Below, in pieces: positions 1 through 33,077 of a DNA stretch of 64,000 nucleotides. How positions within the stretch are numbered: position 1 is the stretch's first letter; every line of letters begins with the position of its first letter. Position numbers and translations under genes: made by a program. This stretch comes from Ruminococcus sp. (GTDB lineage: Bacteria; Bacillota; Clostridia; Oscillospirales; Acutalibacteraceae). The stretch is taken from NCBI GenBank assembly GCA_017384945.1, contig JAFNSO010000027.1:2931-66930 (forward strand), given 5' to 3'. Below the pieces are notes generated by a model. That model was not told the DNA's origin. It did no database searches and saw nothing but the letters and a program-made list of their open reading frames with translations.

Positions 1-3000
1 GCGGAAACAGTGGTTGACTTGTTGTAAAGATTCTGACCGTTGAAATCCTTGTAGGGAGTTTCCTCGAGTTCAAAGGTGACGTCGGTCTTGGCGGCATGCA
101 TCTTCTGATTCTCAACAATCGTATCGTTGGGATAATACTCGTCGCCCTCGTTTTCAACGAAGTCTGTTGCGTAAGCAAAGATACGTCCCTTGAAATTAGC
201 CTTTACGGTAAACGAAACCTCGTTGTTCTTGTCGACATTAAAGGTGCCGACCTTCTTCTTTGTGTTGCCCGTCTTATCCATAAGGAAGCAGGTGATTGAT
301 TTTACGCCCGAGCCGTCGCTGTCACCGTCCTCGGCGATATCTGCGGCTGTTACGGTAACCTTTACGTTATCCTTGAAGAAGAAGCTGTAGTCGGTTTCAC
401 TGACCGTCTTGTTGTCCTCTGTTTTTGAAAGCTTTTCGGTTAATTTAGATTTCTTGCTTGTATCAAAATAGAAGCTTGTGATTACGGGTCCAGTTTTATC
501 AAAATGGAATTCAAACTTGTCATTGTACGCGCAGTCATCCTTGTTGAGCTTACCGTCCTTTGTAGTGCTGACGTTGTTGCCCCAAGCGCGAATCTTGATA
601 ACAGACTTACCCTCTTGCTTGTAATCGTCGTCAACGCTGTTGAGGTCGAGCACAACCTTGATTACCGAATACTTCTTGCCCGTATACGCCGAGGGCTTTG
701 TGAACACACCGTTATCGTGGTCGGTGATAAGCGAGCCGGGAGCTTCTGGCTTCATATTTTCATCAAGCTCATAGAACTTGGCGTACTGTGTAACATCAAT
801 TGTTGAACCACTGTTTTCGATGTAAACCGCGATTTTCTGAATCTTTGAGGTTGTATCCTTTACAACCGCCGCGTATGTGAAATCGTCGTTGAACCAGAGG
901 TAGTTTTTGCTGTCCCTGTATCCCTTCTTGGTGACGCTTCCGAGAACGTTAATATCAGGCTTATTTGAGGTCTTTGTCGCGACAATATCGTCAAACGCGT
1001 CAAAGCCCTTAGTAACGTCAATCTCCTTCTCGGCTGAATCAAGAACAACGGATACGTCCTTGTCGTTGTACTTATATTCCTTTGACTTGTTGTCAAAATT
1101 ATCCTTAAGAGAAATCTTGAGCTTATTAAAGAAGCTGTTTTTATCCGAGTTGCCGACCTTGAGCTCGAAGGAGCGTGAGTAATACTCTCTGCCGTCGTCC
1201 TTGTCGTCAAGTCTCTTAAAGGAACCTGCGATCGGAGAAACCTCTCCGTTGGAGTCGTTTGTAAGCGAGATACCGCTTTCGGAAATTCCCGCGGAGGGAG
1301 ACTCGTCGGAAACGATAACCTCAACGAGAATCTTGTTGTTTGAATAGAGACCGAAGGTCAGAAGGTTGAGAATCTGATCGGCGGCGTTGTTGGCGCCCTT
1401 CTTGAATATAACCTTCTCGAGAGTCGGAGCGGATTCATCAATGTTGAAGCCTACCTTGAACTCCTTGGAAACCTCGGAGTTGTTCGTAACCTTAAAGGTG
1501 AGGATGAACGCGCCGCTTGAAACGCCGTAATCGGTCGCGTCGAACTGAGCTACAACCGAGGTCGTCTTTGTTCCGTCGAAATCGGGAGCCGTGGCGTCGG
1601 AAGCGCTCTTCATACATTTGACTCTTACGGGCTTGTCGGTTTTACCTGTCTTTAAGGTCGCTTCCACAGCCTTGATACCCGAGAGCTCGTCAATGAATCT
1701 CGCGCTGATTGTAGCGTGCTTCTTTGATTCCTCGGAGTAGGTTCCGCCGTCATAGTCGCCCTCGCCCGCTCTCGCGTCCTCAAAGTTTTCAAACGCGAAG
1801 CCGTCCTTCTTGGCGTCCTTTACCTTTTCGTCGAAGGTCTTGTCAATCTTGATGTTTTCGGGATCCTTGTTGACTACGATGTCGAACTTGCTGTCGGCGT
1901 CGTGCTTTTCATCGTTGACCTTTGTCTGTGAATCAGCGTAATAGAAGCCCGAATATGAGTTGTTGAGCTTATCCGTTACCGTAACCTTTAAATCCTTGTA
2001 GTTACTGCGCGCGGCGTCTGAGCCCACTGACAGGTCAAATACCTTAACGTACTTGCCGTCCTTGAAGTAAGAGGATGAATTGGATGTATCAGCCTCTACC
2101 TTCTCGCCCTTTTCCGAGGTGAGGAGGATTTTGTCGTACTCAATACCCGACGAGGGAGCTGCGTCAGTGATTGTGACCTCAGCCTTAACCTTTGTTTTTG
2201 AGTAAAGACCGAAGGTGAGAGCGTTGAAGAACGCGTCGGCGGCGGTGCCTTCCTTCTGCGGAATGAACTTGACCTGCTCAACGCTCGGGTTCGTCTCGTC
2301 CACAAGGAACGATACGCCGAAATCAGCCTTTAAGCCGATGTTGTTCTTTACTGTGTATGTGATTGTGTACTCGCCGCTTTCGAGCTTGCCGTCCGCGTTG
2401 AATACGGTATTAACTGATGTTATTTTCTCCGCGCCTGTATTTGCGGGTGTTACGGTGAGAGGAAGCTCTTCCTTGGAATCCTTTTTGCCGTCCTTAGTGA
2501 GCACAGCCTTTACATCGGCGATTCCCGATACGCTGTCAACAAATTTTGCGACAATCTTGCTGCCCTGATTGAAACGGTTGCTGTAGTAAACCTTGTCGCC
2601 TTCCTTGACGGAAGCAAAGTTCTCGAACTCCACCGCGCCGTCGAGGACGATATTTGTCTTGTCGTTGTTGATTACGAGATCGTACTTTTCGTCCGCTTTG
2701 ACTGTCTTGTCCTCGCAGACTACCTCGCCGTCGTAGTATTTAGCCTCAAACTTATTGTTGAACTTATCCTTGACATTGAGGGTGAGATCCTTGTAGTTGC
2801 TCTTGTCTGCCGTTGTACCCGCGGCGAGAGTAAACTCCTTCTTATAAGTTACCTTTTTTCTTGTTTCGTTCTCCGACGAGAAGGTGCTCTCGCCATTGAC
2901 CGACTCGCCCTTGGCGGAGGTAAGCTTTACGTCCTCGCAGAGTATGCGCGCGGACGGCTTTGCGTCGCTTATTGTGACGACCGCCTTCATGGTGCCGTTG

Positions 3001-6000
3001 GAATAGAGACCGAAGCTCAGAATGTTAAGGAGCTTATCGACGTCTGACTGCTCGTAAACAAGCTCGAGCTTTTCAAACTCGGGTGTTGTCTTGTCGATAT
3101 CAAAGTCAACGGAGAACTTCTTCTTCTGACCTACGTTGTTTTTGACTGTGAAGGACAGAGTATAGCTTCCCGTCTCGAGCTTGAGAGCCGAGATGTTGAC
3201 CTTGGCGTCCGCCTTGAGAACCTTTGAGCTTAAAAGGTCGGGAGCTATAACGTCAACCTTTGCGGGAGCCGCGTCGCCCTTAATGATTTCAGCGGTAATC
3301 TCGTTAAGACCCTTGAGCTCGTCGCTGAACTGAGCCGTTACGGTACCGTTGGAGGTCTGAGCGTCGCTGAATATCGCGGTGCCGTCTACGGAGTCGCTGT
3401 AGTCGAAGTTCTCGAACTTAAAGCCGTCCTCAACTACGTCCGCTCCCTTGTCGAACTCTGTGTTGATTTTGATTGTGCTGTCGCTGTTGTTGAGGATAAT
3501 ATCGAAGTTCTTGTCAACCGCCTTATCCTCACCGTTGATTTTAACGTTTGTGCTGTAGTACTTTGCCTTAATCTCGTTCTGGAGATTATCATTGATTGTA
3601 AATACGATATCCTTGTAGTTGCTCTTCGAGATATCGTCGGATACGGAAATGATGAAGTCCTTTGTGTACTTTCCGTCCTTCTGCTTAAAGCTCGCCGCAA
3701 CGGGAGAAACCTTGTAGCCCGCAGCGGAATCGAGGATAACGTCGTTATCGGAAATACCGCATGAGGGATCAGCGTCCTTGATTGTAAGAGTAACCTTAAC
3801 GTCGCTGTCGGAGAAGAGACCGAAGGTGAGAACATTTAAGAGGTTCTGAACAGCCGTTGTCTCAGCGGGAGCGAACGCTACGCTCTCAACAACAGGGGCT
3901 GTCTTGTCGACCGTAAAGTGGCTTGTTACCGTTTTCTTCACGCCGCTGTTGTTGTATACGGTGAACACAGCCTCGTACTCGCCGTCGGGAATACCGTCCT
4001 TATATACGTCCGTTGTCGCAAACTCAATCTTGAGGTCACTTGCCTTTGAGCCGCTCATTGTAGGTGTGAGCTTAGCGGATGTAACCTTGGCGCCGTTGAG
4101 AGTTACCTCGGTCTTATCGGTATCTATGCCCGAGAGTGAATCTCTGATTGTAACAAAGAGCTTGCCGTCCTTGTTTACGAAGAGCTTGTTGCCGTCGGAG
4201 ATAAAAGGAGTTCCGAGGTCATAGCTTACGCCTTCAAATACGTCCTTCTTGTCGCCGCTGTCGGCGGTAATATTTTCAATGTTGGAAGTATTGTTTGAGG
4301 AAACAATCTCGAAGTTCTCGCCGGGAGTAAGAGTCTTTCCGTCAACTGTCGGCTTGAAGTCGGTAATCGGAAGAACAACGTCCTTGCCGTTGCCGATAGC
4401 GTCCTCAACGGTGAATTTGATATTCTTGTAGGAGGAGCTGTTGTTTACGTCGAGCGAGAAGGTGATATTTGCCGACTCCTTCTGAGAAGCGTTTCTTGTA
4501 AGAGTGTCGCCCGAGTGAATGAACTTAACGTTAGTGATACCCGACGACTTGACGACTGAAGAGAGTGTATCGTCAATTTCGAGTTCAACGTCAACGGAAG
4601 AATTGGAATATACTCCGTTGTTGTCGGCGTTTGAAATACTTCCGTTTATTTTTACGCTCTTGATTACGGGAGCGTCGTTATCAACGAAGATTTCCTTTGT
4701 CTTGACCGACTTGTTGCCGGCGTTGTTAACGGCTGTCATACGGAAAATGTATCTTCCGCTCTCAAGCTTGTCTGTTTCGTAGGATACGGGAACCTCCGTC
4801 TCCTTCTTTGTATCGGGAGCGAACGACGCGGCTACCTTGTCGGTAATATTTGTCAGAGCCGCTTCCGCGATATCAACGTCTGACGCAACCTTTCCGAACT
4901 CTACCTTGATTGCGCTGAGACCTGAGTTGTTGTCTGTGAATTTGGAGGTGATTACCGCCTTCTCACCCTTGTAGAAGCCGTTCTTGCTTTCAAGACCCGA
5001 AACCTCTATATTGCTGATATTAACATCATCAAGCGAAGCGAGAATATCGTAAACCTCGGGGTCGTTGTCCGCGGCAACCTGAACGCTGAGGTTCTTGCCC
5101 GACGCCTTGAGCTTGTATACGGAGGAAGAGTTGCCCGCCGTGTCCTTAATCTTGAAGCGAAGGTTAACAAGCTTAGCCGCCTTGGACGCGGGAGCCTTAT
5201 AGAAGTACTTACTGCCCTCGGTCTTGACAAATTTGAGCACGTCGCTGTTAGCTCCGTCAAGAATAATCGCGTTGTCGCTGAGCGGCGAGGGGTTTGCGCC
5301 CTCGTTTACGGCGGTAAAGATAACGGTGAGATCCTCGTTGGAGTAAACGCCGTAATCTCTGTAGTTCTTGCCGTTTTCAACCGCAACCTCGCTTACCGCG
5401 GGAGCCTTGTTGTCGTATTTGATTTCAGCGGTTTCAAAGCTGTCGCTGTTGCCCGCCTTGTCTGTTACTACGATTGTCTTTTTGCCGAAATCGGTAGCTT
5501 CAAAGCTGTAAACACCGCCCTCGGCAGTGAGCTCGTCCTCACCGAGCTTAACTGTGCTTATTCCAGAGCACTCCGTATCGGAGGGATAATCCTTGACCTT
5601 AAAGCTGACCTTTACGGGCTTGTTTGTCCAGTCGGACTCGGAATATGTAAAGCCCTGAGTAAGACGAGGCTTTTCCTTATCAATCTTTACGGGCTTAGTC
5701 GTGATTTCGGTGTGGTTGCCGACACTGTCGGAAATGCTGATGATGTAGGTTGCGTACTCGTCCGCCGTAAAGCTGTAAACCTTGTTTACGGGAGCGAGGG
5801 GCTTGCCGTCGCCCGAATCGGTTGACTTGCGGTATGTAACGGTGCCTACGCCCGAGATATCGTCGGTAATCTTTACGGATACCTTGGAGTTCTTATTTGT
5901 CCAGATTTTATCCGCGTCGTTTTCGTAGGTGATGTCCGCGTCGCCGACCTGAGGAGCGGAATTGTCGATTGTGTATGTCTTTACGGACTCGGACGCGTTT

Positions 6001-7802
6001 CCGCAGTTGTTGACCGCGAGAACCTTGAAGTCATATTTTCCCGACTCAATCGCGGCGGGAACGGTGAATTTGAGAGTCTTGTTCTTTATCTTTGAGGTCT
6101 CGGAATTATCAAGCTTGTCTACCTGAGCGTATTCCGTATCGCCTGTCTTTTTATACATAAGGACAGCCTCTTTGAGACCTACTACCTCGTCCTTTACCTT
6201 TACGGAAATCTCCTTGCCCGCGGGAATCTGAGTAACCGAGGCGTCTCCGTCGGCCTCGAAGTCAAGAATGTCGGGTTTGATTTTCTGAGATATGATAACC
6301 TCAAACGAAACTCTGGACTCATCGTTGAGAAGCTCCTCAACCTTGTCCTTGTTCTTAATCTTTACATATACGCTGTCAGTAAGCATATTGTAGGAAGCGC
6401 TGTTACCCGCCTCGTCGGTGAGCTTGATATTCAAATCATACTTGCCGTCCTCTGTGTCAAGAACAGGAAGCGCAAACTTGTTGCCCGCGCCGCTTAAAGC
6501 GGATGTACCGTTGAGCAAACTGAGAGTCTTTACGGGAGCTCCGTCCTTAGTGTCAACGTCAACAGTCGCGAAAACCTTTCTGTTGTCATACAGACCGAAG
6601 GAAAGCTTTCTGAGCGCGGCGTCTGCGTCGCTTTCATCGGCTGAGAAGGTAACCGTAACGTCCTCTGCCGCGGGAGCGCTCTTGCAAATCTTAAGCTTGC
6701 TCTTTTCGATTGTATAATCAGCGGCCTCGCCCGCGTTGTTATCGTAGGAGACCTTGTAATCCTGCATAGTGTCCGCTACGAAGAAATACTCTCCGCCGCT
6801 TTCGCTTACGGTATAAGCGTTGTTATTTTTAACGCCCTTTACAGACACGGAATTTTTGCTGACGCCCGACTCGTTGTCGCTGAGCTTGAACGTAACCTTG
6901 AGGTTGCCCTTTGTCCACTTGCCTGTCATATCATCCGCGGAGGATGTCGCGGCGTCGGTAATCGAAAGCAGCTCAAAAACAGGAGCGGACTTGTCAATCT
7001 TAACCTTGTCGGTAGCCTTTTCCGTCTTGTAGCCGAACTTATCGGTCAGGGTAACGGTGTAGTTATCATTCTTTTCGGCGATAAAGCTGTACTTTCCGTC
7101 AGAGCTCGAGACAGTGACGTCATCCGAACCGCACTTACAGGACGCCTTGTCAACAATATCTTTATCAGCCTCAAACGTAACCTTTACGTTTTTGTTTGTC
7201 CATGAATTGTTATCTCCGCCGTCGTATTTGAAGTCGCCGATAGCGGGACCCTTCTTTACAACTTCAAAGGTTGTATCAATATCGTTAAAAGGAGTGCCTT
7301 CGGAATTTTTATTGACAAACACAAGACGGTTTACACCCTCCTTAAGACCGCTTTGCAACGCCTTTTCAACGTCAACGGTAAGGGTGATGTTACCTTCGCT
7401 GTCCTTTTCCGCCTTGTAGCCCTCAGGCTTACAAACCTCCATCTGATTAGCTAATTTGCTCTTCAAATCTATTTTAAGAGAAAGTGTTTCAGGCTTTGAG
7501 GGATCAAATTCCGCGGCGGTTTTCGGGAAAAACCTGTAATAAAGCTTCTTGACCTTTCCTCCGTCGAAATAATAATTCTTACCGTTTGAATTTTTAACGG
7601 CGTAAGCCTCATCGTCAGCAAACAGCTCATAGCTCTTTGTTACGCCCGAGCCTGTTTTGATACGAGGTTTTTTCTCATCGGGAGTCGCGATTTTAGCGGA
7701 GCCCGAAATAACGGGAGCGACAAAAAGCGTACCCGTAACAATTAAAACCGAGAGAAGCGCGGCAATTGTTTTTCGCAGCGCGTTTAAGCTTTTTCTTCTC
7801 AT
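1..7802 (-). CDS. Giant secreted Ig-like repeat surface protein (>2600 aa; 3' end outside the window)
   Basis: Not in the ORF track, consistent with no stop codon in the window. ATG at 7802 overlaps the upstream stop (ATGA) with AGGAG RBS near 7810-7814. N-terminus MRRKSLNALRKTIAALLSVLIVTGTLFVAPVISGSA is signal-peptide-like. Repeated Ig-like boundaries (IDKSAPV, IDNSAPQ, YDNKAPA, VDNDAPV, D/NxAGN). The same frame is still open at position 3 (...KDFNGQNLYNKSTTVS). Confidence 0.88.
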   Translation of the reverse strand, partial: MRRKSLNALRKTIAALLSVLIVTGTLFVAPVISGSAKIATPDEKKPRIKTGSGVTKSYELFADDEAYAVKNSNGKNYYFDGGKVKKLYYRFFPKTAAEFDPSKPETLSLKIDLKSKLANQMEVCKPEGYKAEKDSEGNITLTVDVEKALQSGLKEGVNRLVFVNKNSEGTPFNDIDTTFEVVKKGPAIGDFKYDGGDNNSWTNKNVKVTFEADKDIVDKASCKCGSDDVTVSSSDGKYSFIAEKNDNYTVTLTDKFGYKTEKATDKVKIDKSAPVFELLSITDAATSSADDMTGKWTKGNLKVTFKLSDNESGVSKNSVSVKGVKNNNAYTVSESGGEYFFVADTMQDYKVSYDNNAGEAADYTIEKSKLKICKSAPAAEDVTVTFSADESDADAALRKLSFGLYDNRKVFATVDVDTKDGAPVKTLSLLNGTSALSGAGNKFALPVLDTEDGKYDLNIKLTDEAGNSASYNMLTDSVYVKIKNKDKVEELLNDESRVSFEVIISQKIKPDILDFEADGDASVTQIPAGKEISVKVKDEVVGLKEAVLMYKKTGDTEYAQVDKLDNSETSKIKNKTLKFTVPAAIESGKYDFKVLAVNNCGNASESVKTYTIDNSAPQVGDADITYENDADKIWTNKNSKVSVKITDDISGVGTVTYRKSTDSGDGKPLAPVNKVYSFTADEYATYIISISDSVGNHTEITTKPVKIDKEKPRLTQGFTYSESDWTNKPVKVSFKVKDYPSDTECSGISTVKLGEDELTAEGGVYSFEATDFGKKTIVVTDKAGNSDSFETAEIKYDNKAPAVSEVAVENGKNYRDYGVYSNEDLTVIFTAVNEGANPSPLSDNAIILDGANSDVLKFVKTEGSKYFYKAPASKAAKLVNLRFKIKDTAGNSSSVYKLKASGKNLSVQVAADNDPEVYDILASLDDVNISNIEVSGLESKNGFYKGEKAVITSKFTDNNSGLSAIKVEFGKVASDVDIAEAALTNITDKVAASFAPDTKKETEVPVSYETDKLESGRYIFRMTAVNNAGNKSVKTKEIFVDNDAPVIKSVKINGSISNADNNGVYSNSSVDVELEIDDTLSSVVKSSGITNVKFIHSGDTLTRNASQKESANITFSLDVNNSSSYKNIKFTVEDAIGNGKDVVLPITDFKPTVDGKTLTPGENFEIVSSNNTSNIENITADSGDKKDVFEGVSYDLGTPFISDGNKLFVNKDGKLFVTIRDSLSGIDTDKTEVTLNGAKVTSAKLTPTMSGSKASDLKIEFATTDVYKDGIPDGEYEAVFTVYNNSGVKKTVTSHFTVDKTAPVVESVAFAPAETTAVQNLLNVLTFGLFSDSDVKVTLTIKDADPSCGISDNDVILDSAAGYKVSPVAASFKQKDGKYTKDFIISVSDDISKSNYKDIVFTINDNLQNEIKAKYYSTNVKINGEDKAVDKNFDIILNNSDSTIKINTEFDKGADVVEDGFKFENFDYSDSVDGTAIFSDAQTSNGTVTAQFSDELKGLNEITAEIIKGDAAPAKVDVIAPDLLSSKVLKADAKVNISALKLETGSYTLSFTVKNNVGQKKKFSVDFDIDKTTPEFEKLELVYEQSDVDKLLNILSFGLYSNGTMKAVVTISDAKPSARILCEDVKLTSAKGESVNGESTFSSENETRKKVTYKKEFTLAAGTTADKSNYKDLTLNVKDKFNNKFEAKYYDGEVVCEDKTVKADEKYDLVINNDKTNIVLDGAVEFENFASVKEGDKVYYSNRFNQGSKIVAKFVDSVSGIADVKAVLTKDGKKDSKEELPLTVTPANTGAEKITSVNTVFNADGKLESGEYTITYTVKNNIGLKADFGVSFLVDETNPSVEQVKFIPQKEGTAADAFFNALTFGLYSKTKVKAEVTITDAAPSSGIEYDKILLTSEKGEKVEADTSNSSSYFKDGKYVKVFDLSVGSDAARSNYKDLKVTVTDKLNNSYSGFYYADSQTKVNDEKHDADSKFDIVVNKDPENIKIDKTFDEKVKDAKKDGFAFENFEDARAGEGDYDGGTYSEESKKHATISARFIDELSGIKAVEATLKTGKTDKPVRVKCMKSASDATAPDFDGTKTTSVVAQFDATDYGVSSGAFILTFKVTNNSEVSKEFKVGFNIDESAPTLEKVIFKKGANNAADQILNLLTFGLYSNNKILVEVIVSDESPSAGISESGISLTNDSNGEVSPIAGSFKRLDDKDDGREYYSRSFELKVGNSDKNSFFNKLKISLKDNFDNKSKEYKYNDKDVSVVLDSAEKEIDVTKGFDAFDDIVATKTSNKPDINVLGSVTKKGYRDSKNYLWFNDDFTYAAVVKDTTSKIQKIAVYIENSGSTIDVTQYAKFYELDENMKPEAPGSLITDHDNGVFTKPSAYTGKKYSVIKVVLDLNSVDDDYKQEGKSVIKIRAWGNNVSTTKDGKLNKDDCAYNDKFEFHFDKTGPVITSFYFDTSKKSKLTEKLSKTEDNKTVSETDYSFFFKDNVKVTVTAADIAEDGDSDGSGVKSITCFLMDKTGNTKKKVGTFNVDKNNEVSFTVKANFKGRIFAYATDFVENEGDEYYPNDTIVENQKMHAAKTDVTFELEETPYKDFNGQNLYNKSTTVS

Positions 7803-8272
7803 TTTCTACTCTCCTTCTGGTTATTTAAAAAATTAATATATATAAAATTTATTCCGTTAAACAGACCGTGCATATGCACCGAAGCCAACAGCAAGGCAAT
7901 CAGAATAATCCAGACTGTCTGGCTGATAACAGGAACAAATATAAAAACCAAATTCAGAATAATTAAGAATATCAGCAGTATATCAATAACAAAAGCGGGC
8001 TTATTGCTGAAGAAACACAGAAAACCGGGTCTTCGGTAGGACGAGCGGTTTTTTTGCGCCGCTCTTCTGTGAGAGTTGATGATAAACAACAGAATGTAGC
8101 CGTAAACCATTCCGCCCCAAAAAAGGACTCCCGCCGCGACGGCGATAATAACATTAAACGCATTGCCCTCATAATTGCCTATAAAAGTAAGTAAAATTGA
8201 AAATGCCGAAATAATTAAAGAAATTACCGATTGCTTAAAAAGAAATACGTCTTTTTTCAAGATTTCCTCCAA
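7799..8272 (-). CDS. Multi-pass (about 4 TM) membrane protein, unknown function
   Basis: Four hydrophobic segments; stop overlaps the giant ORF start; start codon (TTG) uncertain. Confidence 0.7.
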   Translation of the reverse strand: MEEILKKDVFLFKQSVISLIISAFSILLTFIGNYEGNAFNVIIAVAAGVLFWGGMVYGYILLFIINSHRRAAQKNRSSYRRPGFLCFFSNKPAFVIDILLIFLIILNLVFIFVPVISQTVWIILIALLLASVHMHGLFNGINFIYINFLNNQKESRK

Positions 8273-8338
8273 AAATCACCTAATGATAAAAGTCAAGTCA
8301 CCCCAACAACGGCAAAAAGCCGCTGTTGAGGAAAAAAC

Positions 8339-8932
8339 TTATAGTATCTCGTCGGAATTTATGAGCATAACTTCCTTCTTAACGGTAAAGTGAATGCTCT
8401 CCGACACATTCGGATTATTTGCCTTGAGGTTCTCGTCCGTGGAAGGATTGAGATTAACCTCGCTGAGAACGGTTGTCTCGTTGAATACAGGCTGCGGCGA
8501 AGCCGTGTTCTGCTGAGAAACGTCTTCGTTCTGAGCGAGAACGCTCGTCTGATTATCGCCGTAGTTATCATCCTGAGACAAAACACTCGTCTGCTCCGAG
8601 CCGTAGCCCGCGGGCTGAGAAGACGCGGGGGCGCCGGTCTCCGTTTTCGGAGGCGGAACAACCGCGGGAGCTCTGCCCTTTTTCTTTCTCTTCTCGGAAA
8701 GCTCTGTTGTCATTGTCTTGCCGTCGACCCTGAGTCTGCCTGTGCTGGCGTTAGCCTTCTGCATCTGGCTCACGGTCTTTGCCTTGGCGCGGCCTGTTTT
8801 CATATCAAAAATCGATTTGATATCGAAAACTATAAAGAGAATGACAGTAATTATGAAAAACAGAATACAGAATGAAAGCGAAACAATGAAGCAGGTATTT
8901 AAAATACCGATTACAGAGGTATCCGCGCCCAT
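8339..8932 (-). CDS. Single-TM membrane protein with a low-complexity tail carrying three (E/Q)T(T/S)VL motifs
   Basis: N-terminal hydrophobic helix; EQTSVL, NQTSVL and NETTVL motifs; start overlaps the kinase stop. Confidence 0.8.
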   Translation of the reverse strand: MGADTSVIGILNTCFIVSLSFCILFFIITVILFIVFDIKSIFDMKTGRAKAKTVSQMQKANASTGRLRVDGKTMTTELSEKRKKKGRAPAVVPPPKTETGAPASSQPAGYGSEQTSVLSQDDNYGDNQTSVLAQNEDVSQQNTASPQPVFNETTVLSEVNLNPSTDENLKANNPNVSESIHFTVKKEVMLINSDEIL

Positions 8933-10647
8933 TATTCATCCCCTCCTTCCATATCCGGCTTAACGTTACCGTAACCGTTTTCCTTGGCTTGTTTTAGGTT
9001 TTCGGTGATATTGTTTACAATTTCCGAGTTACGGAGGATTGTATTCTGGTCGGAGAACTTAGGATCCGCCTGAACAGCGTCGACACTTGCCTTCAAGGTA
9101 TCGATAAGCGAATAGAAATTGTTCTCGGAAATACCGTTTTTGTAAAGAACATCGTTACGGGTAGCAAGCTCGTTGGCGACAAACTTGTAGCCGAGCAACG
9201 CGACCTTTATGTTATCGGTTCGAATAATATCGGCGGAGGAAAGCTCCTGCAGCGCCTTGAAATACTCGCTGACGTCAAATGACGTGTCACCCGAAATATC
9301 ATTTTCCTTTTCGTAGCTGTCGGAGATAACCTTAAGTCTCTTTGCTCTGTCAACCCTTTTGGGGTCGTTTGAATTTTCGATAACCTTATTAAGCCACTTG
9401 CTCGCCATAAGGATTCCCGCGTGTGTGCTGTCCTCCTTGAGGCCGTCGGTGCTGTACCCGAACATCAGCAGATTCGCGAGATCGTAGGCAAACTCATTTC
9501 CGAAGGCAGCCTTGTCCTTGGCGATAAGCTCAGACTCGTGAATCGACTCAATGTTAAGGAGATCATTTTTCTCGTCAGGTGTGATAAGGTCGTCGCTCTT
9601 GTAAATATTCAAAAGCTCGTTGTAAGCTTTAATGTTGTCGGGTTCCATCTCGACAGCCTGCTTGAGCATTTTCTCGTCCTGTTTGTTTACGCCCTGAGTA
9701 ACGAGAGAGTCGTAGGTGGACGCCTGCATTGAGTTGCCCGCGACTGTAAAGCAAACCGAAGCGATTCCCAGAACAACCGTCAGAATAAGGGAGGTCAAAA
9801 ACACCTTCCACTTAATCGACTGAACCCTTTTGTTTTCAATGTCGAGGTCCTTGTAGTGGTCGAGCGCATATAGAAGCTCGGCGCAGGACTGGTAGCGGTC
9901 GTCGGGGTTACGCTGTGTACATTTTGTGATAATCTCCTCGAGACCCGATGAAAGATTCGGGTTCCACTGGCGTATGGGATACATCTCATACGGAGGAGTA
10001 CATGGATTGTGACCTGTAACGAGATGATACATGGTCGCGCCGAGACAGTAAATATCCGTTCTCGCGTCGGTCTGACCGTGACCTCCGTATTGCTCGGGAG
10101 CCGCGTAGCCCTGCGTACCGAGGCAGGTGGTATCCTCGACGCTGGACGACTTGAACTCACGAGCCGTACCGAAGTCAATAAGCGAGACGTTACCGTCCGG
10201 CTTAAGCATAACGTTGGCGGGCTTCATATCTCGGTAGATAATCGGAGGCTTGCGGGAGTGGAGGTATCCGAGTACGTCGCACAGCTGCTTTGACCACTCG
10301 ATTACGTCGTCCTGACTCTGAGCGCCCTTTTCGAGAGCCTTGCTCAGAGAGTTACCCTCGATATAATCCATAACGATGAGGAAGCTTCCGTCGCCGTCTA
10401 TTACATCAATAATACTGGGAAGGTTGGGGTGGTTAAATCTTTTCAGAAGGTCGGTCTCAACAATAAGGTTCTGCTTTACGACCTCAAAATTCTGAACGCC
10501 GTCCTTTCGGACCTCTTTTATTGCCCAGATTTTGTTCGCGCGCTCGTTTACCGCCTGGTAAACAACGCTCATTCCGCCCTTACCTACAACTCTGAGTATT
10601 TTATATTTTCCGTCTACTATAGAACCAATTTCAAGCATACCGTTCAC
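8932..10647 (-). CDS. Hanks-type Ser/Thr protein kinase with TM helix and extracellular helical domain
   Basis: GKGGMSVV, AIK, YRDMKPAN, DFG and APE motifs intact; TM segment VFLTSLILTVVLGIASVCF; no PASTA repeats seen. Confidence 0.95.
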   Translation of the reverse strand: MNGMLEIGSIVDGKYKILRVVGKGGMSVVYQAVNERANKIWAIKEVRKDGVQNFEVVKQNLIVETDLLKRFNHPNLPSIIDVIDGDGSFLIVMDYIEGNSLSKALEKGAQSQDDVIEWSKQLCDVLGYLHSRKPPIIYRDMKPANVMLKPDGNVSLIDFGTAREFKSSSVEDTTCLGTQGYAAPEQYGGHGQTDARTDIYCLGATMYHLVTGHNPCTPPYEMYPIRQWNPNLSSGLEEIITKCTQRNPDDRYQSCAELLYALDHYKDLDIENKRVQSIKWKVFLTSLILTVVLGIASVCFTVAGNSMQASTYDSLVTQGVNKQDEKMLKQAVEMEPDNIKAYNELLNIYKSDDLITPDEKNDLLNIESIHESELIAKDKAAFGNEFAYDLANLLMFGYSTDGLKEDSTHAGILMASKWLNKVIENSNDPKRVDRAKRLKVISDSYEKENDISGDTSFDVSEYFKALQELSSADIIRTDNIKVALLGYKFVANELATRNDVLYKNGISENNFYSLIDTLKASVDAVQADPKFSDQNTILRNSEIVNNITENLKQAKENGYGNVKPDMEGGDE

Positions 10648-10648
10648 C

Positions 10649-11416
10649 TCACGCTGTCTTTACTAACAAGACAGTAATATTATCGAGCTCCTGTCTGTAC
10701 TTGTTGAGCTCGGTAAGATAAACCGCGTTATCGTTCATCGACTGTTCGTTTACAAGAACATACGGATTGAGTCTCTCGTAAATCTCGTCGGAGGAGATGA
10801 TGTGTCTGAAACCGTCGGAGCAAAGCATATACACCTCGCCCGTATGAACGTCGCCCGAGAAGAAATCCGGTTCTATAAAATTGCTGGCTCCGATGCACTG
10901 GAGCAAAACATTCCTCTGAGGACTGTTTTTTGCCTCCTCGTAGGTCATTCTGCCCATATCCATCTCGCGCTGTACAAATGTCTGATCCTTAGTAAGCTGA
11001 ACCAGACTGTCCGAAATTCTGTACGCGCGTGAGTCGCCTATGTTAATGATATAGTACTTATCACCGAGAATCAAAAGCGCTATGAGGGTAGTACCCATGG
11101 TAACGCTGTTTTTTGCCGAGTAGTCATGGATTCTGTCGTTGCAGCCGAAAGCGATTTTCTCCCACGAGCTGAATATTCTGTCCTTCGGGTCAGAAAGAGT
11201 CATAATCTCGGGGAGTTGAGTGTAGAACCACTCCTTGAACGAGCGGATAACAACCGCGCTCGCAACCTCGCCCTTCGCGAGACCGCCCATTCCGTCACAT
11301 ATAACAGCAAGCAAAACATTCCCGACGTCGGACTTGGCCTCGAGCAAAAGAGCCGAATCCTGATTGGTGCTTTTTTTGATACCTATATCAGTATGAACCG
11401 CTGTCAAAAATTCCAT
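10649..11416 (-). CDS. PP2C/PPM-family Ser/Thr protein phosphatase
   Basis: NQD, ICDGMGG, GTT, NIGDSR, CSDG and DNIT motifs; probable start at MEFLTAVHTD (11416). Confidence 0.93.
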   Translation of the reverse strand: MEFLTAVHTDIGIKKSTNQDSALLLEAKSDVGNVLLAVICDGMGGLAKGEVASAVVIRSFKEWFYTQLPEIMTLSDPKDRIFSSWEKIAFGCNDRIHDYSAKNSVTMGTTLIALLILGDKYYIINIGDSRAYRISDSLVQLTKDQTFVQREMDMGRMTYEEAKNSPQRNVLLQCIGASNFIEPDFFSGDVHTGEVYMLCSDGFRHIISSDEIYERLNPYVLVNEQSMNDNAVYLTELNKYRQELDNITVLLVKTA

Positions 11417-11590
11417 AATAACAAATCTTTCCGCCCGCAGCTTCATTTATCCGGCTTACGCGGGCGGGTAAGGTCGGATTAAGGAAAAAAACGTTTCCCG
11501 ATAAAGCTGCCCATAAAACAGCCTTAACTCAGCTTGCCGAAAAACGGCAAGCTGAGTATAAATCTTAGTTAAAGATTAAAGCTTTTTAAA

Positions 11591-13081
11591 TCAGCCCAAG
11601 AACTCGAACTCTTCGTCGGAAACCTTAATTGTGTCGCCCTTGGAAAGTACAACCTCCTGATTCGGGCTTACTCTTGTTCCGTTTACGTATGTGCAGTTTG
11701 TGGAGTTGAGGTCGGTGATGTAGCATCTGCCGCCGCGAACCTTAATCTTGCAGTGAGCGCGGCTGATTGAGTTGTTGTCGCTGATGCAGTAGTCTACTCT
11801 TCTTCTCTCTTTACCGATGATGAACTCGTTCTTGTTGATAGCGATTGTCTCGCTGTTTCTCTTTCTGCGGAGTGAGAAGCCCTGAGCCTGACCGCCGAGT
11901 ACGGTTGTCTCGCCCGCGCCCTCGCCGAGAACGCTTGTCTCTCCGGCTCCGTCATTGGACGGCATTGTCGGAGGAACGGGAGGTACTCTTCCGCCTACAG
12001 GAGGTACGGGAGGTGTCGGAGGAGGCATCATCGGGCCGTTGCCGCCGTTGCCGCCTGACTTCTTCTTGCTGTTAACAATAATAAGGATAACAACAACTAC
12101 TATGATAACAGCTACTACAGCGATAGCAATAATAATGATAAGAGTGGGATCAAAACCACCTTCACCGCCGTTGTTAACTTCTGTCGGAGCCTCTGTTGCT
12201 ATGGGAGCGAGAGTTGTCTCCTCAGCAACAGTTGTCTCTTCCTCGCCAGCCTTGGTCTCATCAGTCGTGTTTCCATCGGGTGTCTGATACTCTATACCGA
12301 GGTCGTCAAGAGCCGCCTTAACCTGATCGATGGCTACGGCATACTGGAATGTTTGGTCATCAAATCCCATCTTTGTAATGCCGACAACATTACCGTCGCT
12401 GTCAACAAGAGGACCGCCCGAGTTGCCGCCCTGAATGGCTGTATCGAACTGAACGTACTTTGTTCCCGAATTATCAACAAGATTGGAAACAGTAGAGCTT
12501 GTGATTGAAAGCTTTTCGTCTGTGTAAGTGATGCTGTCCTGTAACCACTTTGCGGATCCGGGATATCCGAGGATGTGGACAGGCTGAGTCTTTTCAAGAG
12601 ATCCGCTGTCACCGAGAACAACAGGGTCTCTCTTGACAGTGCTGTTGAGGGTGAGGATAGCGTAGTCGGAAGCGCTGGAGTTCTTGAGTGTAGCGTTAAC
12701 GAGCATACCGCCGTTAACCGTTACGGCGTAGGAGAGCTTTGAGGGGTTGAACTTAAAGTCGTCATAACCCTTATCGGCGTAATACTCTTTCAGCGCGACG
12801 CCGAGCTCTGACTTTGCAGTGATAACGTGCTGACATGTAAGAATGGTTGTTGAGTTGATAAGGAAGCAGGAGCCTGAGGGCAGATAAGCCGCGGGCATAC
12901 CTGAACCCGGATCGTACAGGAAGTTGATCTGAAGTACGCTCTTCTTTACATTTACAACAGCCTCATTCGCCTTGCCTTCGGCTGACGCTGAAATCGCTAC
13001 CGAAAATACTAAGGAAAGCGCAAGTACAAGCGCAATAACCAAGCTTAGTATTCTCTTGGTGTGTACTTTTGAATGTTTCAT
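11591..13081 (-). CDS. Signal peptide + trypsin-like serine protease + TM + Pro-rich linker + C-terminal FHA domain
   Basis: Catalytic triad context LTCQHV / SDYAIL / GNSGGP; long TM segment; FHA motifs IGK..SISRAH..NSTN..VNG. Confidence 0.9.
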   Translation of the reverse strand: MKHSKVHTKRILSLVIALVLALSLVFSVAISASAEGKANEAVVNVKKSVLQINFLYDPGSGMPAAYLPSGSCFLINSTTILTCQHVITAKSELGVALKEYYADKGYDDFKFNPSKLSYAVTVNGGMLVNATLKNSSASDYAILTLNSTVKRDPVVLGDSGSLEKTQPVHILGYPGSAKWLQDSITYTDEKLSITSSTVSNLVDNSGTKYVQFDTAIQGGNSGGPLVDSDGNVVGITKMGFDDQTFQYAVAIDQVKAALDDLGIEYQTPDGNTTDETKAGEEETTVAEETTLAPIATEAPTEVNNGGEGGFDPTLIIIIAIAVVAVIIVVVVILIIVNSKKKSGGNGGNGPMMPPPTPPVPPVGGRVPPVPPTMPSNDGAGETSVLGEGAGETTVLGGQAQGFSLRRKRNSETIAINKNEFIIGKERRRVDYCISDNNSISRAHCKIKVRGGRCYITDLNSTNCTYVNGTRVSPNQEVVLSKGDTIKVSDEEFEFLG

Positions 13082-13507: not shown

Positions 13508-13536
13508 ATTCTACACGATTTTTCGTTTATTGTCAA
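13508..13536 (-). promoter_or_regulatory. Sigma-A promoter of the Cro-like gene with a palindromic operator-like site in the spacer
   Basis: TTGACA (13536-13531), 17 bp, TAGAAT (13513-13508); ACGA-TTTT-TCGT palindrome at 13515-13526. Confidence 0.7.
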
Positions 13537-32927: not shown

Positions 32928-33077
32928 TTGGTTTTTTCCAAAAAGAGTTTTCAACTCTCAACTCTGAAAGTTTTCCGAATAACTAATTGCGCATTGCGAA
33001 TTAAATACTGTGTCTTAATACAGTAGTGTCATACTATTTTCAAAAAGTTTCAAAAAATCTGAATTTTTCACATTTTT

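Follow-up and report, generated by a model that had tools for sequence, protein, structure and literature searches.

Introduction

Forkhead-associated (FHA) domains are specific for phosphothreonine (pThr), and the residue at position +3 is one determinant of their specificity (PMC13712964; PMC6733907). In the actinobacterial proteins GarA and OdhI, a Glu-Thr-(Thr/Ser) motif lies in a disordered segment upstream of the FHA domain (ETTS motif: PMC12321487). The same arrangement is found in a 64,000-nucleotide stretch (the window) of a Ruminococcus sp. contig (genome assembly GCA_017384945.1, 2.08 Mb), where a protein of 496 residues combines a trypsin-like domain, a transmembrane (TM) helix and an FHA domain preceded by two copies of such a motif. 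The same operon encodes a Hanks-type Ser/Thr kinase, a PP2C-type phosphatase and a membrane protein of 197 residues in which further copies are present. We infer, with a probability of about 0.6, that these Thr motifs are phosphorylated by the kinase, dock in cis or in trans onto the FHA domain of the same operon and are dephosphorylated by PP2C, so that the four proteins would form a reversible network at the membrane.

GarA is a small soluble regulator of the tricarboxylic acid cycle, whereas the FHA domain considered here forms the cytoplasmic C-terminus of a membrane protease, and its motif is duplicated, the second copy apparently lying too close to the domain for binding in cis. The PknB site of GarA, T-S-V-F, has the same register as T-S-V-L here, and the GarA FHA domain is among the Protein Data Bank (PDB) matches of the present one. 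Orthology with OdhI/GarA was rejected, as the 496-residue protein is a membrane protease and scores 22.6 bits with the NCBIfam OdhI model (cut-off 200).

Sequence and fold comparisons both place the FHA domain of Bdellovibrio DgcB (tail-FHA-GGDEF; PDB 6hc0, 6hc1 and 6hbz) first among PDB entries. [quoted passage not shown] In DgcB, pT14 is located about 18 residues before the domain, to be compared with 20 and 10 residues before strand 1 for T382 and T392 of the 496-residue protein. DgcB differs from the present system by its diguanylate cyclase output, its single motif, the lack of a separate multivalent partner and the Arg found at the canonical position of its FHA domain.

In Mycobacterium tuberculosis, FHA domains and phosphothreonines of a disordered linker mediate contacts within and between molecules of the membrane protein Rv1747, a partner of PknF, and make it oligomerise and cluster (PMC8339232). 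The 496-residue protein is likewise membrane-bound and combines an FHA domain with predicted acceptor Thr residues in a disordered stretch. However, Rv1747 places two FHA domains on an ATP-binding cassette exporter and all sites in one chain, whereas the present protein pairs one FHA domain with a trypsin-like ectodomain, and most sites belong to a separate scaffold. In Sulfolobus acidocaldarius, the FHA protein ArnA binds the C-terminal tail of ArnB, which holds all the known phosphorylation sites (PMC6509490). Unlike the system described here, this pair is archaeal and soluble, with a vWA partner, a zinc-ribbon FHA protein, a role in archaellum regulation and a different motif.

Among Firmicutes, an experimentally known Hanks-kinase site is T32 of MacP, a substrate of StkP in Streptococcus pneumoniae (E-E-pT-K-I-L). 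Like the 197-residue protein, MacP is a small single-pass membrane protein with an E-T-x-hydrophobic-L register. It has a single site, no sequence similarity was detected, and S. pneumoniae is devoid of FHA proteins and hence of a reader. Finally, in the threonine phosphorylation pathway of type VI secretion systems (T6SS; PpkA/PppA/Fha1-TagH), a kinase, a PP2C phosphatase and an FHA protein also control a membrane-associated assembly, and T6SS Fha forms condensates via its FHA domain and a disordered region (bioRxiv 10.1101/2023.12.21.572528). The locus contains no T6SS genes and its host is Gram-positive; a TagH equivalog was rejected as well (TIGR03354, 37.6 bits for a cut-off of 120.25).

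The pThr-FHA principle is thus already known from GarA/OdhI, DgcB, Rv1747, ArnA/ArnB and T6SS Fha. What is new is the combination of an FHA-tethered extracellular protease bearing a duplicated self-motif with a separate, widespread and unnamed family of scaffolds rich in T-x-x-L sites. Our literature searches found no relevant publication on the motif or on this architecture. To our knowledge, few substrates and readers of bacterial Hanks kinases have been identified beyond a handful of model organisms, and next to none in the abundant Clostridia of gut and rumen.

Results and Discussion

Distribution of the motifs

A previous sequence-only reading had described five (E/Q)T(T/S)VL pentapeptides in two proteins of the locus, and their coordinates proved exact upon reverse-complement translation. 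All are encoded by the minus strand. In the trypsin-TM-FHA protein (11591..13081; Pfam Trypsin_2, 2.2e-25, and FHA, 1.1e-18), translation confirmed that ETSVL (motif 1; 11927..11941, residues 381-385) and ETTVL (motif 2; 11897..11911, residues 391-395) form a tandem unit of 10 residues shortly before the FHA domain. The 197-residue protein (8339..8932) contains QTSVL at 8579..8593 (residues 114-118, in the variable tail) and again at 8537..8551 (residues 128-132), followed by ETTVL (8465..8479, residues 152-156), the most conserved motif of the tail. Two additional T-x-x-L sites of this protein, predicted to be cytoplasmic and absent from the earlier description, are T64 in STGRL (8732..8746, residues 63-67) and T75 in TTEL (8699..8710, residues 75-78), which brings its total to five. 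All the pentapeptides can be described by a single short linear motif of consensus (E/Q)-T-x-(V/L)-L, in which the Thr and the Leu at +3 are invariant.

When the open reading frames (ORFs) of at least 100 residues in the 2.08-Mb genome were scanned (1.19 million residues), T[TS]VL was found 39 times, and only the 496- and 197-residue proteins contained more than one copy. Furthermore, five of the six [EQ]T[TS]VL sequences of the genome are located in these two proteins. A six-frame scan of the window revealed no further [EQ]T[TS]VL, and the wider [EQDN] pattern gave a single extra match, DTTVL at 33016-33030, where stop codons interrupt the frame. A relaxed scan of the genome for clustered sites returned only two weak candidates, on contigs C13 and C102. 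The concentration of the motif in this locus is far beyond chance. The motif is short, but nothing else speaks for a chance occurrence or for functionless low-complexity repeats, and this explanation is already refuted by the specificity for one locus of the genome, by conservation across families at 27-50% identity and by the enrichment over shuffled sequences reported below; we give it practically no credit.

Outside the window, another FHA protein (G000:C34:1514-2596, plus strand, an ORF of 361 residues) carries GTSVL about 35 residues before its FHA domain. This ORF is found just upstream of an ORF of 1597 residues with an N-terminal FHA domain, EssC/FtsK-like by size alone. The presence of a motif before an FHA domain may be general in this Ruminococcus sp.

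The trypsin-TM-FHA protein

The 496-residue protein consists of a signal peptide (residues 1-34), an extracellular trypsin-like domain (about 70-245) and a TM helix (314-336), after which come a Pro-rich disordered linker, the two motifs and the C-terminal FHA domain (11594..11881, minus strand, residues 401-496). A homologue search seeded with residues 330-496 gave 396 proteins. The trypsin-TM-FHA architecture was observed in all the 120 best of them, one lacking the protease part, and some of the best homologues were proteins of metagenome-assembled genomes (MAGs) named Ruminococcus sp. Two copies of [ED]T[ST]VL were present in 116 of these 120 closest homologues, with a spacing of exactly 10 residues in the homologues listed.

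When the cytoplasmic tails encoded at 18 syntenic loci were aligned, T382 and L385 were invariant and T392, V394 and L395 were at least 90% conserved, while the linker around the motifs varied in length and sequence. In the AlphaFold2 (AF2) model of the cytoplasmic part, the motifs are disordered, with a predicted local distance difference test (pLDDT) score below 50. A conserved candidate phospho-motif of the GarA/OdhI type, located in a predicted disordered segment, is therefore found in this protein. FHA proteins from the same order that are more distantly related differ in their N-terminal parts, and their motifs are altered at +1 and +2 (ETTYL, ETMLL, GTTLL); the Thr and the Leu at +3 are kept, usually twice.

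The FHA domain matched the PF00498 profile over residues 421-487 with 67.9 bits (cut-off 20.7). Its AF2 model (pLDDT of at least 96) displays the eleven-strand beta-sandwich of the FHA fold, and Foldseek matched it to DgcB, FhaA, EmbR, GarA and Rad53 with target-normalised template-modelling scores of 0.8-0.9. The pocket residues S440-R441-A-H443 and S460-T461-N462 are kept.

As strand 1 begins at residue 402 in the model, T382 and T392 lie 20 and 10 residues upstream of it, respectively. On this modelled geometry, the distance separating T392 from the domain is probably too short for binding in cis, so this residue would be expected to act in trans only. By analogy with GarA/OdhI and DgcB, T382 could fold back in cis. 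The sequence-only reading had proposed a competition, in which the phosphorylated FHA protein is closed upon itself and the 197-residue protein acts mainly as a multivalent decoy for the FHA pocket. Such a competition would be a special case of the network proposed here; it is compatible with all the data, and the DgcB-like spacing of T382 suits binding in cis. However, the evidence fits recruitment or clustering equally well and the position of T392 suggests trans contacts. In addition, the membrane anchoring of both proteins and their co-translation with the kinase speak for assembly rather than sequestration. We consider the competition unlikely as the principal mode of action.

Cleavage of the motifs by the trypsin-like domain of the operon was ruled out, since the protease is predicted to be outside the cell and the motifs inside. 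In one Ruminococcus MAG (L005:3737-5377), the trypsin-FHA gene is split into two ORFs of 184 and 362 residues, through either a frameshift or an assembly error.

The 197-residue protein and its family

Neither Pfam nor NCBIfam contains a family model for the 197-residue protein, and the same is true for the neighbouring protein of 157 residues. A profile search of 1.84 billion representatives with the 197-residue family gave 1605 clusters at E ≤1e-3 and 483 at E ≤1e-10, and its matches in the ESM Atlas were only hypothetical Bacillota proteins. Identity with AuxB, a lipoteichoic acid stability factor, was rejected (19.5 bits for a cut-off of 300), this match being most likely TM or low-complexity noise.

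In an AF2 model built with 117 sequences, a short N-terminus is followed by a confident TM helix (residues 3-35, annotated here as about 3-36), two juxtamembrane helices (38-64) and a disordered tail, which ends with a C-terminal block (180-197). Across the family, the mean net charge of the flanks of the TM helix is -0.8 on the N-terminal side and +2.7 on the C-terminal side, the latter being the more positive in 98.8% of the members. By the positive-inside rule, the short N-terminus is thus predicted to be outside the cell and the tail to be cytoplasmic, which is the opposite of the tail location that the sequence-only reading had named as refuting its proposal.

In 16 close homologues (37-53% identity), the TM helix, the juxtamembrane block and the C-terminal block are conserved and the tail is variable. 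Within this variable tail, only T153 and L156 are invariant; both are also at least 90% conserved in 117 representatives of the family, as is T129. Among the 16 closest homologues, T64, G65, L67, T75 and L78 do not vary; the first three are also at least 90% conserved across the 117 representatives. The consensus of the 117 representatives contains TGRL and four further T-x-x-L sites, and the family logo shows E/Q at -1, G/T/S/E at +1, V/L/R/K at +2 and L at +3. Between homologues, the number of copies ranges from 2 to at least 7, the register of Thr and Leu being kept. In both families, the motifs are thus conserved within otherwise variable linkers, which supports the sequence-only reading. 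The most extreme expansion seen is that of a 210-residue homologue (locus L044, G397:C29:33800-44800, at 6701-7297), in which seven near-identical x-T-T-V-L-N repeats follow one another.

The specificity of the pattern was examined by counting its variants in the tails of 158 family representatives and in composition-preserving shuffles of the same sequences. T..L was observed 786 times, for 142±11 in the shuffled tails (z about 58, a value inflated by ancestry, since related sequences are counted). None of the other patterns was enriched: T...L was found 98 times (142 in the shuffles), S..L 94 times (110), T..[IV] 223 times (285) and T..[DE] 218 times (334). The signal is thus specific for Thr and for Leu at +3, which is the pattern expected of FHA ligands, and the conserved Thr and +3 Leu agree with the pThr-x-x-hydrophobic recognition that the sequence-only reading had invoked.

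These counts also bear on the idea of a short linear motif that works independently of phosphorylation, for example through beta-strand addition or by docking onto the kinase, the phosphatase, the 157-residue protein or a cytoskeletal partner, the Thr being structural. The unphosphorylated tail of DgcB also occupied the FHA cleft in a crystal, and Nott et al. 2009 (by its title, as cited in PMC12321487) indicates that GarA-type FHA domains make phospho-independent contacts. However, Ser does not replace the conserved Thr and S..L is not enriched, the motif always travels with the kinase-phosphatase pair, and the acidic or polar residue at -1 and the hydrophobic one at +3 match known Hanks-kinase and FHA sites. 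A phosphorylation-independent role seems to us very improbable.

The C-terminal block (8342-8395, minus strand) has the pattern (I/V)-x-F-x-(V/I)-x-K-x-x-x-x-(I/V)-H-T-x-E-x-I, common to the whole family. It is unfolded in the AF2 model (pLDDT 60-75) and may be a second docking element. The block is also present in a mini-paralogue encoded outside the window (G000:C11:11887-12048, minus strand), a protein of about 97 residues with one TM helix, where it reads hydrophobic-x-K-x-x-M-L-I-H-S-D-E-E-I. The mini-paralogue carries the T-x-x-L sites ETSRL and KTKEL, and its gene adjoins none of the kinases found in the genome search.

Kinase, phosphatase and candidate readers

The kinase (571 residues; 8932..10647, minus strand; Pfam Pkinase, 7.8e-48) comprises a kinase domain (residues 15-253), a TM helix (282-304) and an extracellular domain of about 265 residues, for which no family match was obtained. 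The kinase domain scores 163.6 bits with PF00069 and contains the catalytic motifs AIK (41-46), YRD (138-140) and DFG (158-160), as well as a TT..APE activation loop (173-185). The phosphatase (265 residues; 10649..11446, minus strand; Pfam PP2C_2, 1.5e-9) scores 38.2 bits with PF13672, for a cut-off of 24. A PASTA kinase of the Stk1/PrkC/PknB type was rejected: the PknB_PASTA_kin model matched only the kinase domain, with 201 bits (cut-off 450), and no PASTA match was found with Pfam. In the same way, the phosphatase is not an Stp1/IreP equivalog (NCBIfam, 181 bits for a cut-off of 230). As the scores obtained with the OdhI, TagH, FhaB and PASTA-kinase equivalogs are far below their cut-offs, the proteins of the locus do not belong to those families.

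A relative of the 197-residue protein is encoded at 25 loci from rumen and gut MAGs (Ruminococcus, Oscillospiraceae and Lachnospiraceae). Apart from two Lachnospiraceae loci, L021 and L022, the gene order FHA protein, PP2C, kinase, 197-residue protein and 157-residue protein is kept at the related loci wherever the DNA is long enough, and a giant ORF then follows. The same two loci excepted, an FHA-protein match was found directly upstream of PP2C at all 17 related loci that have a homologue of the 197-residue protein, a PP2C gene and upstream DNA. The cassette is patchy: of 200 genomes sampled from the GTDB family of this Ruminococcus sp., 10 have the scaffold.

Several observations weigh against the FHA domain of the operon as the reader of the motifs. 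The genome contains seven FHA domains, six of them elsewhere, and four Hanks kinases, three of them elsewhere, among which the real partners could be found. L021 and L022 possess the PP2C, the kinase and a motif-rich homologue of the 197-residue protein, but lack an FHA gene directly upstream, so a neighbouring FHA protein is not an obligatory reader. The canonical Gly-Arg of FHA domains, with its phosphate-binding Arg, is replaced by Gly-Lys, with K424 aligned to the Arg of DgcB and Lys present in 153 of 157 homologues; this conserved Lys may still bind phosphate. The unphosphorylated motifs were not docked on the FHA domain in the AF2 model, which neither supports nor refutes docking, and shared ancestry lessens the force of the enrichment reported above.

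The extra FHA domains and kinases, the two Lachnospiraceae loci and the Lys also speak for another possibility, namely that the Thr sites are phosphorylated by the kinase of the operon and read by other FHA proteins, for example small ones or the two FHA ATPases that resemble EssC/FtsK, or that they work on the 197-residue protein as a plain charge switch. The GTSVL of the 361-residue FHA protein points the same way. Against this stand the FHA-protein match upstream of PP2C at the 17 qualifying loci and the presence of the same motif in the FHA protein of the operon itself, while the strict Leu at +3 and the restriction to Thr argue for some FHA reader. We hold this alternative to be rather unlikely, and retain the FHA domain of the same operon as the preferred reader.

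Proposed mechanism

In the network that we propose, the kinase of the operon would phosphorylate the first Thr of each copy of the motif, which would turn each copy into a pThr-x-x-Leu site bound by the FHA domain of the 496-residue protein. The 197-residue protein would serve as a flexible scaffold anchored in the membrane and offering five sites, to which the FHA protein would add two. PP2C would remove the phosphates and reset the system. Comparable principles are seen in Rv1747, whose multivalent FHA and phospho-linker contacts lead to oligomers and clusters once it is phosphorylated, and in the binding of ArnA to the multiply phosphorylated tail of ArnB. Such a reversible, multivalent network of FHA domains and phosphothreonines could position, cluster or gate the outward-facing protease beside the giant surface protein encoded downstream. 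The conserved neighbouring genes suggest that the output is the control of the extracellular protease, of the giant surface protein, or of both.

Sequence alone thus nominates a kinase, an eraser, a reader domain and seven candidate phosphorylation sites (Thr with Leu at +3) on two partners, so that peptides and purified domains would suffice for a direct test of the whole circuit. Phosphothreonine signalling is thereby connected with a protease that faces outwards and with a giant surface protein, a link that may matter for adhesion or for the colonisation of fibres.

The 197-residue protein also points to a large unannotated family that is defined by a functional motif and not by a fold. A bolder proposal, which we regard as possible though doubtful, is that it founds a large unnamed Bacillota family (at least 1605 clusters) of membrane-anchored, disordered scaffolds with 2 to at least 7 pThr-x-x-Leu sites. 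With the FHA-tethered protease, a dedicated kinase and the phosphatase, these scaffolds would form a phosphorylation-driven, multivalent and condensate-like membrane patch controlling the processing or display of the giant surface protein in rumen and gut Clostridia. If this is true, the cell surface would be controlled from the inside out, in a way for which no Gram-positive counterpart has been described.

Organisation of the locus

The genes form a co-directional run on the minus strand, in the order trypsin-TM-FHA protein, PP2C, Hanks kinase, 197-residue protein, 157-residue protein and giant surface protein. The stop codon of the kinase overlaps the start of the 197-residue gene (TAATG), for whose product no Pfam or NCBIfam family was found, as mentioned above. 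The next gene (7799..8272, minus strand) encodes the multi-pass membrane protein of 157 residues, in which neither a family match nor a T-x-x-L code was detected; at the related loci, it always adjoins the 197-residue gene. Its stop codon overlaps the start of the giant gene (3..7802, minus strand), the last conserved gene of the cassette, whose product exceeds 2600 residues within the window and has a signal peptide and immunoglobulin-like repeats. Beyond the window (G000:C7:29-2930), the giant protein ends with a C-terminal TM anchor and a short basic tail. The giant gene is followed by another Hanks kinase gene (C7:29-760), and the same trailing kinase occurs at loci L014 and L016.

A near-consensus promoter of the sigma-70 type (TTGACA, 17 nucleotides, TAGAAT) was observed at 13508-13536 (minus strand), about 430 nucleotides upstream of the start of the FHA-protein gene. 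In the gap of 144 nucleotides between the stop of this gene and the start of the PP2C gene, a perfect stem of 13 base pairs with a loop of 5 nucleotides is located at about 11527-11557 (minus strand). This stem lacks a T-run and was not called by the terminator scan; it might tune the ratio of the FHA protein to the downstream products. A second stem-loop, of about 10 base pairs, is located at about 8304-8328 (minus strand), in the 66-nucleotide gap between the stop of the 197-residue gene and the start of the 157-residue gene.

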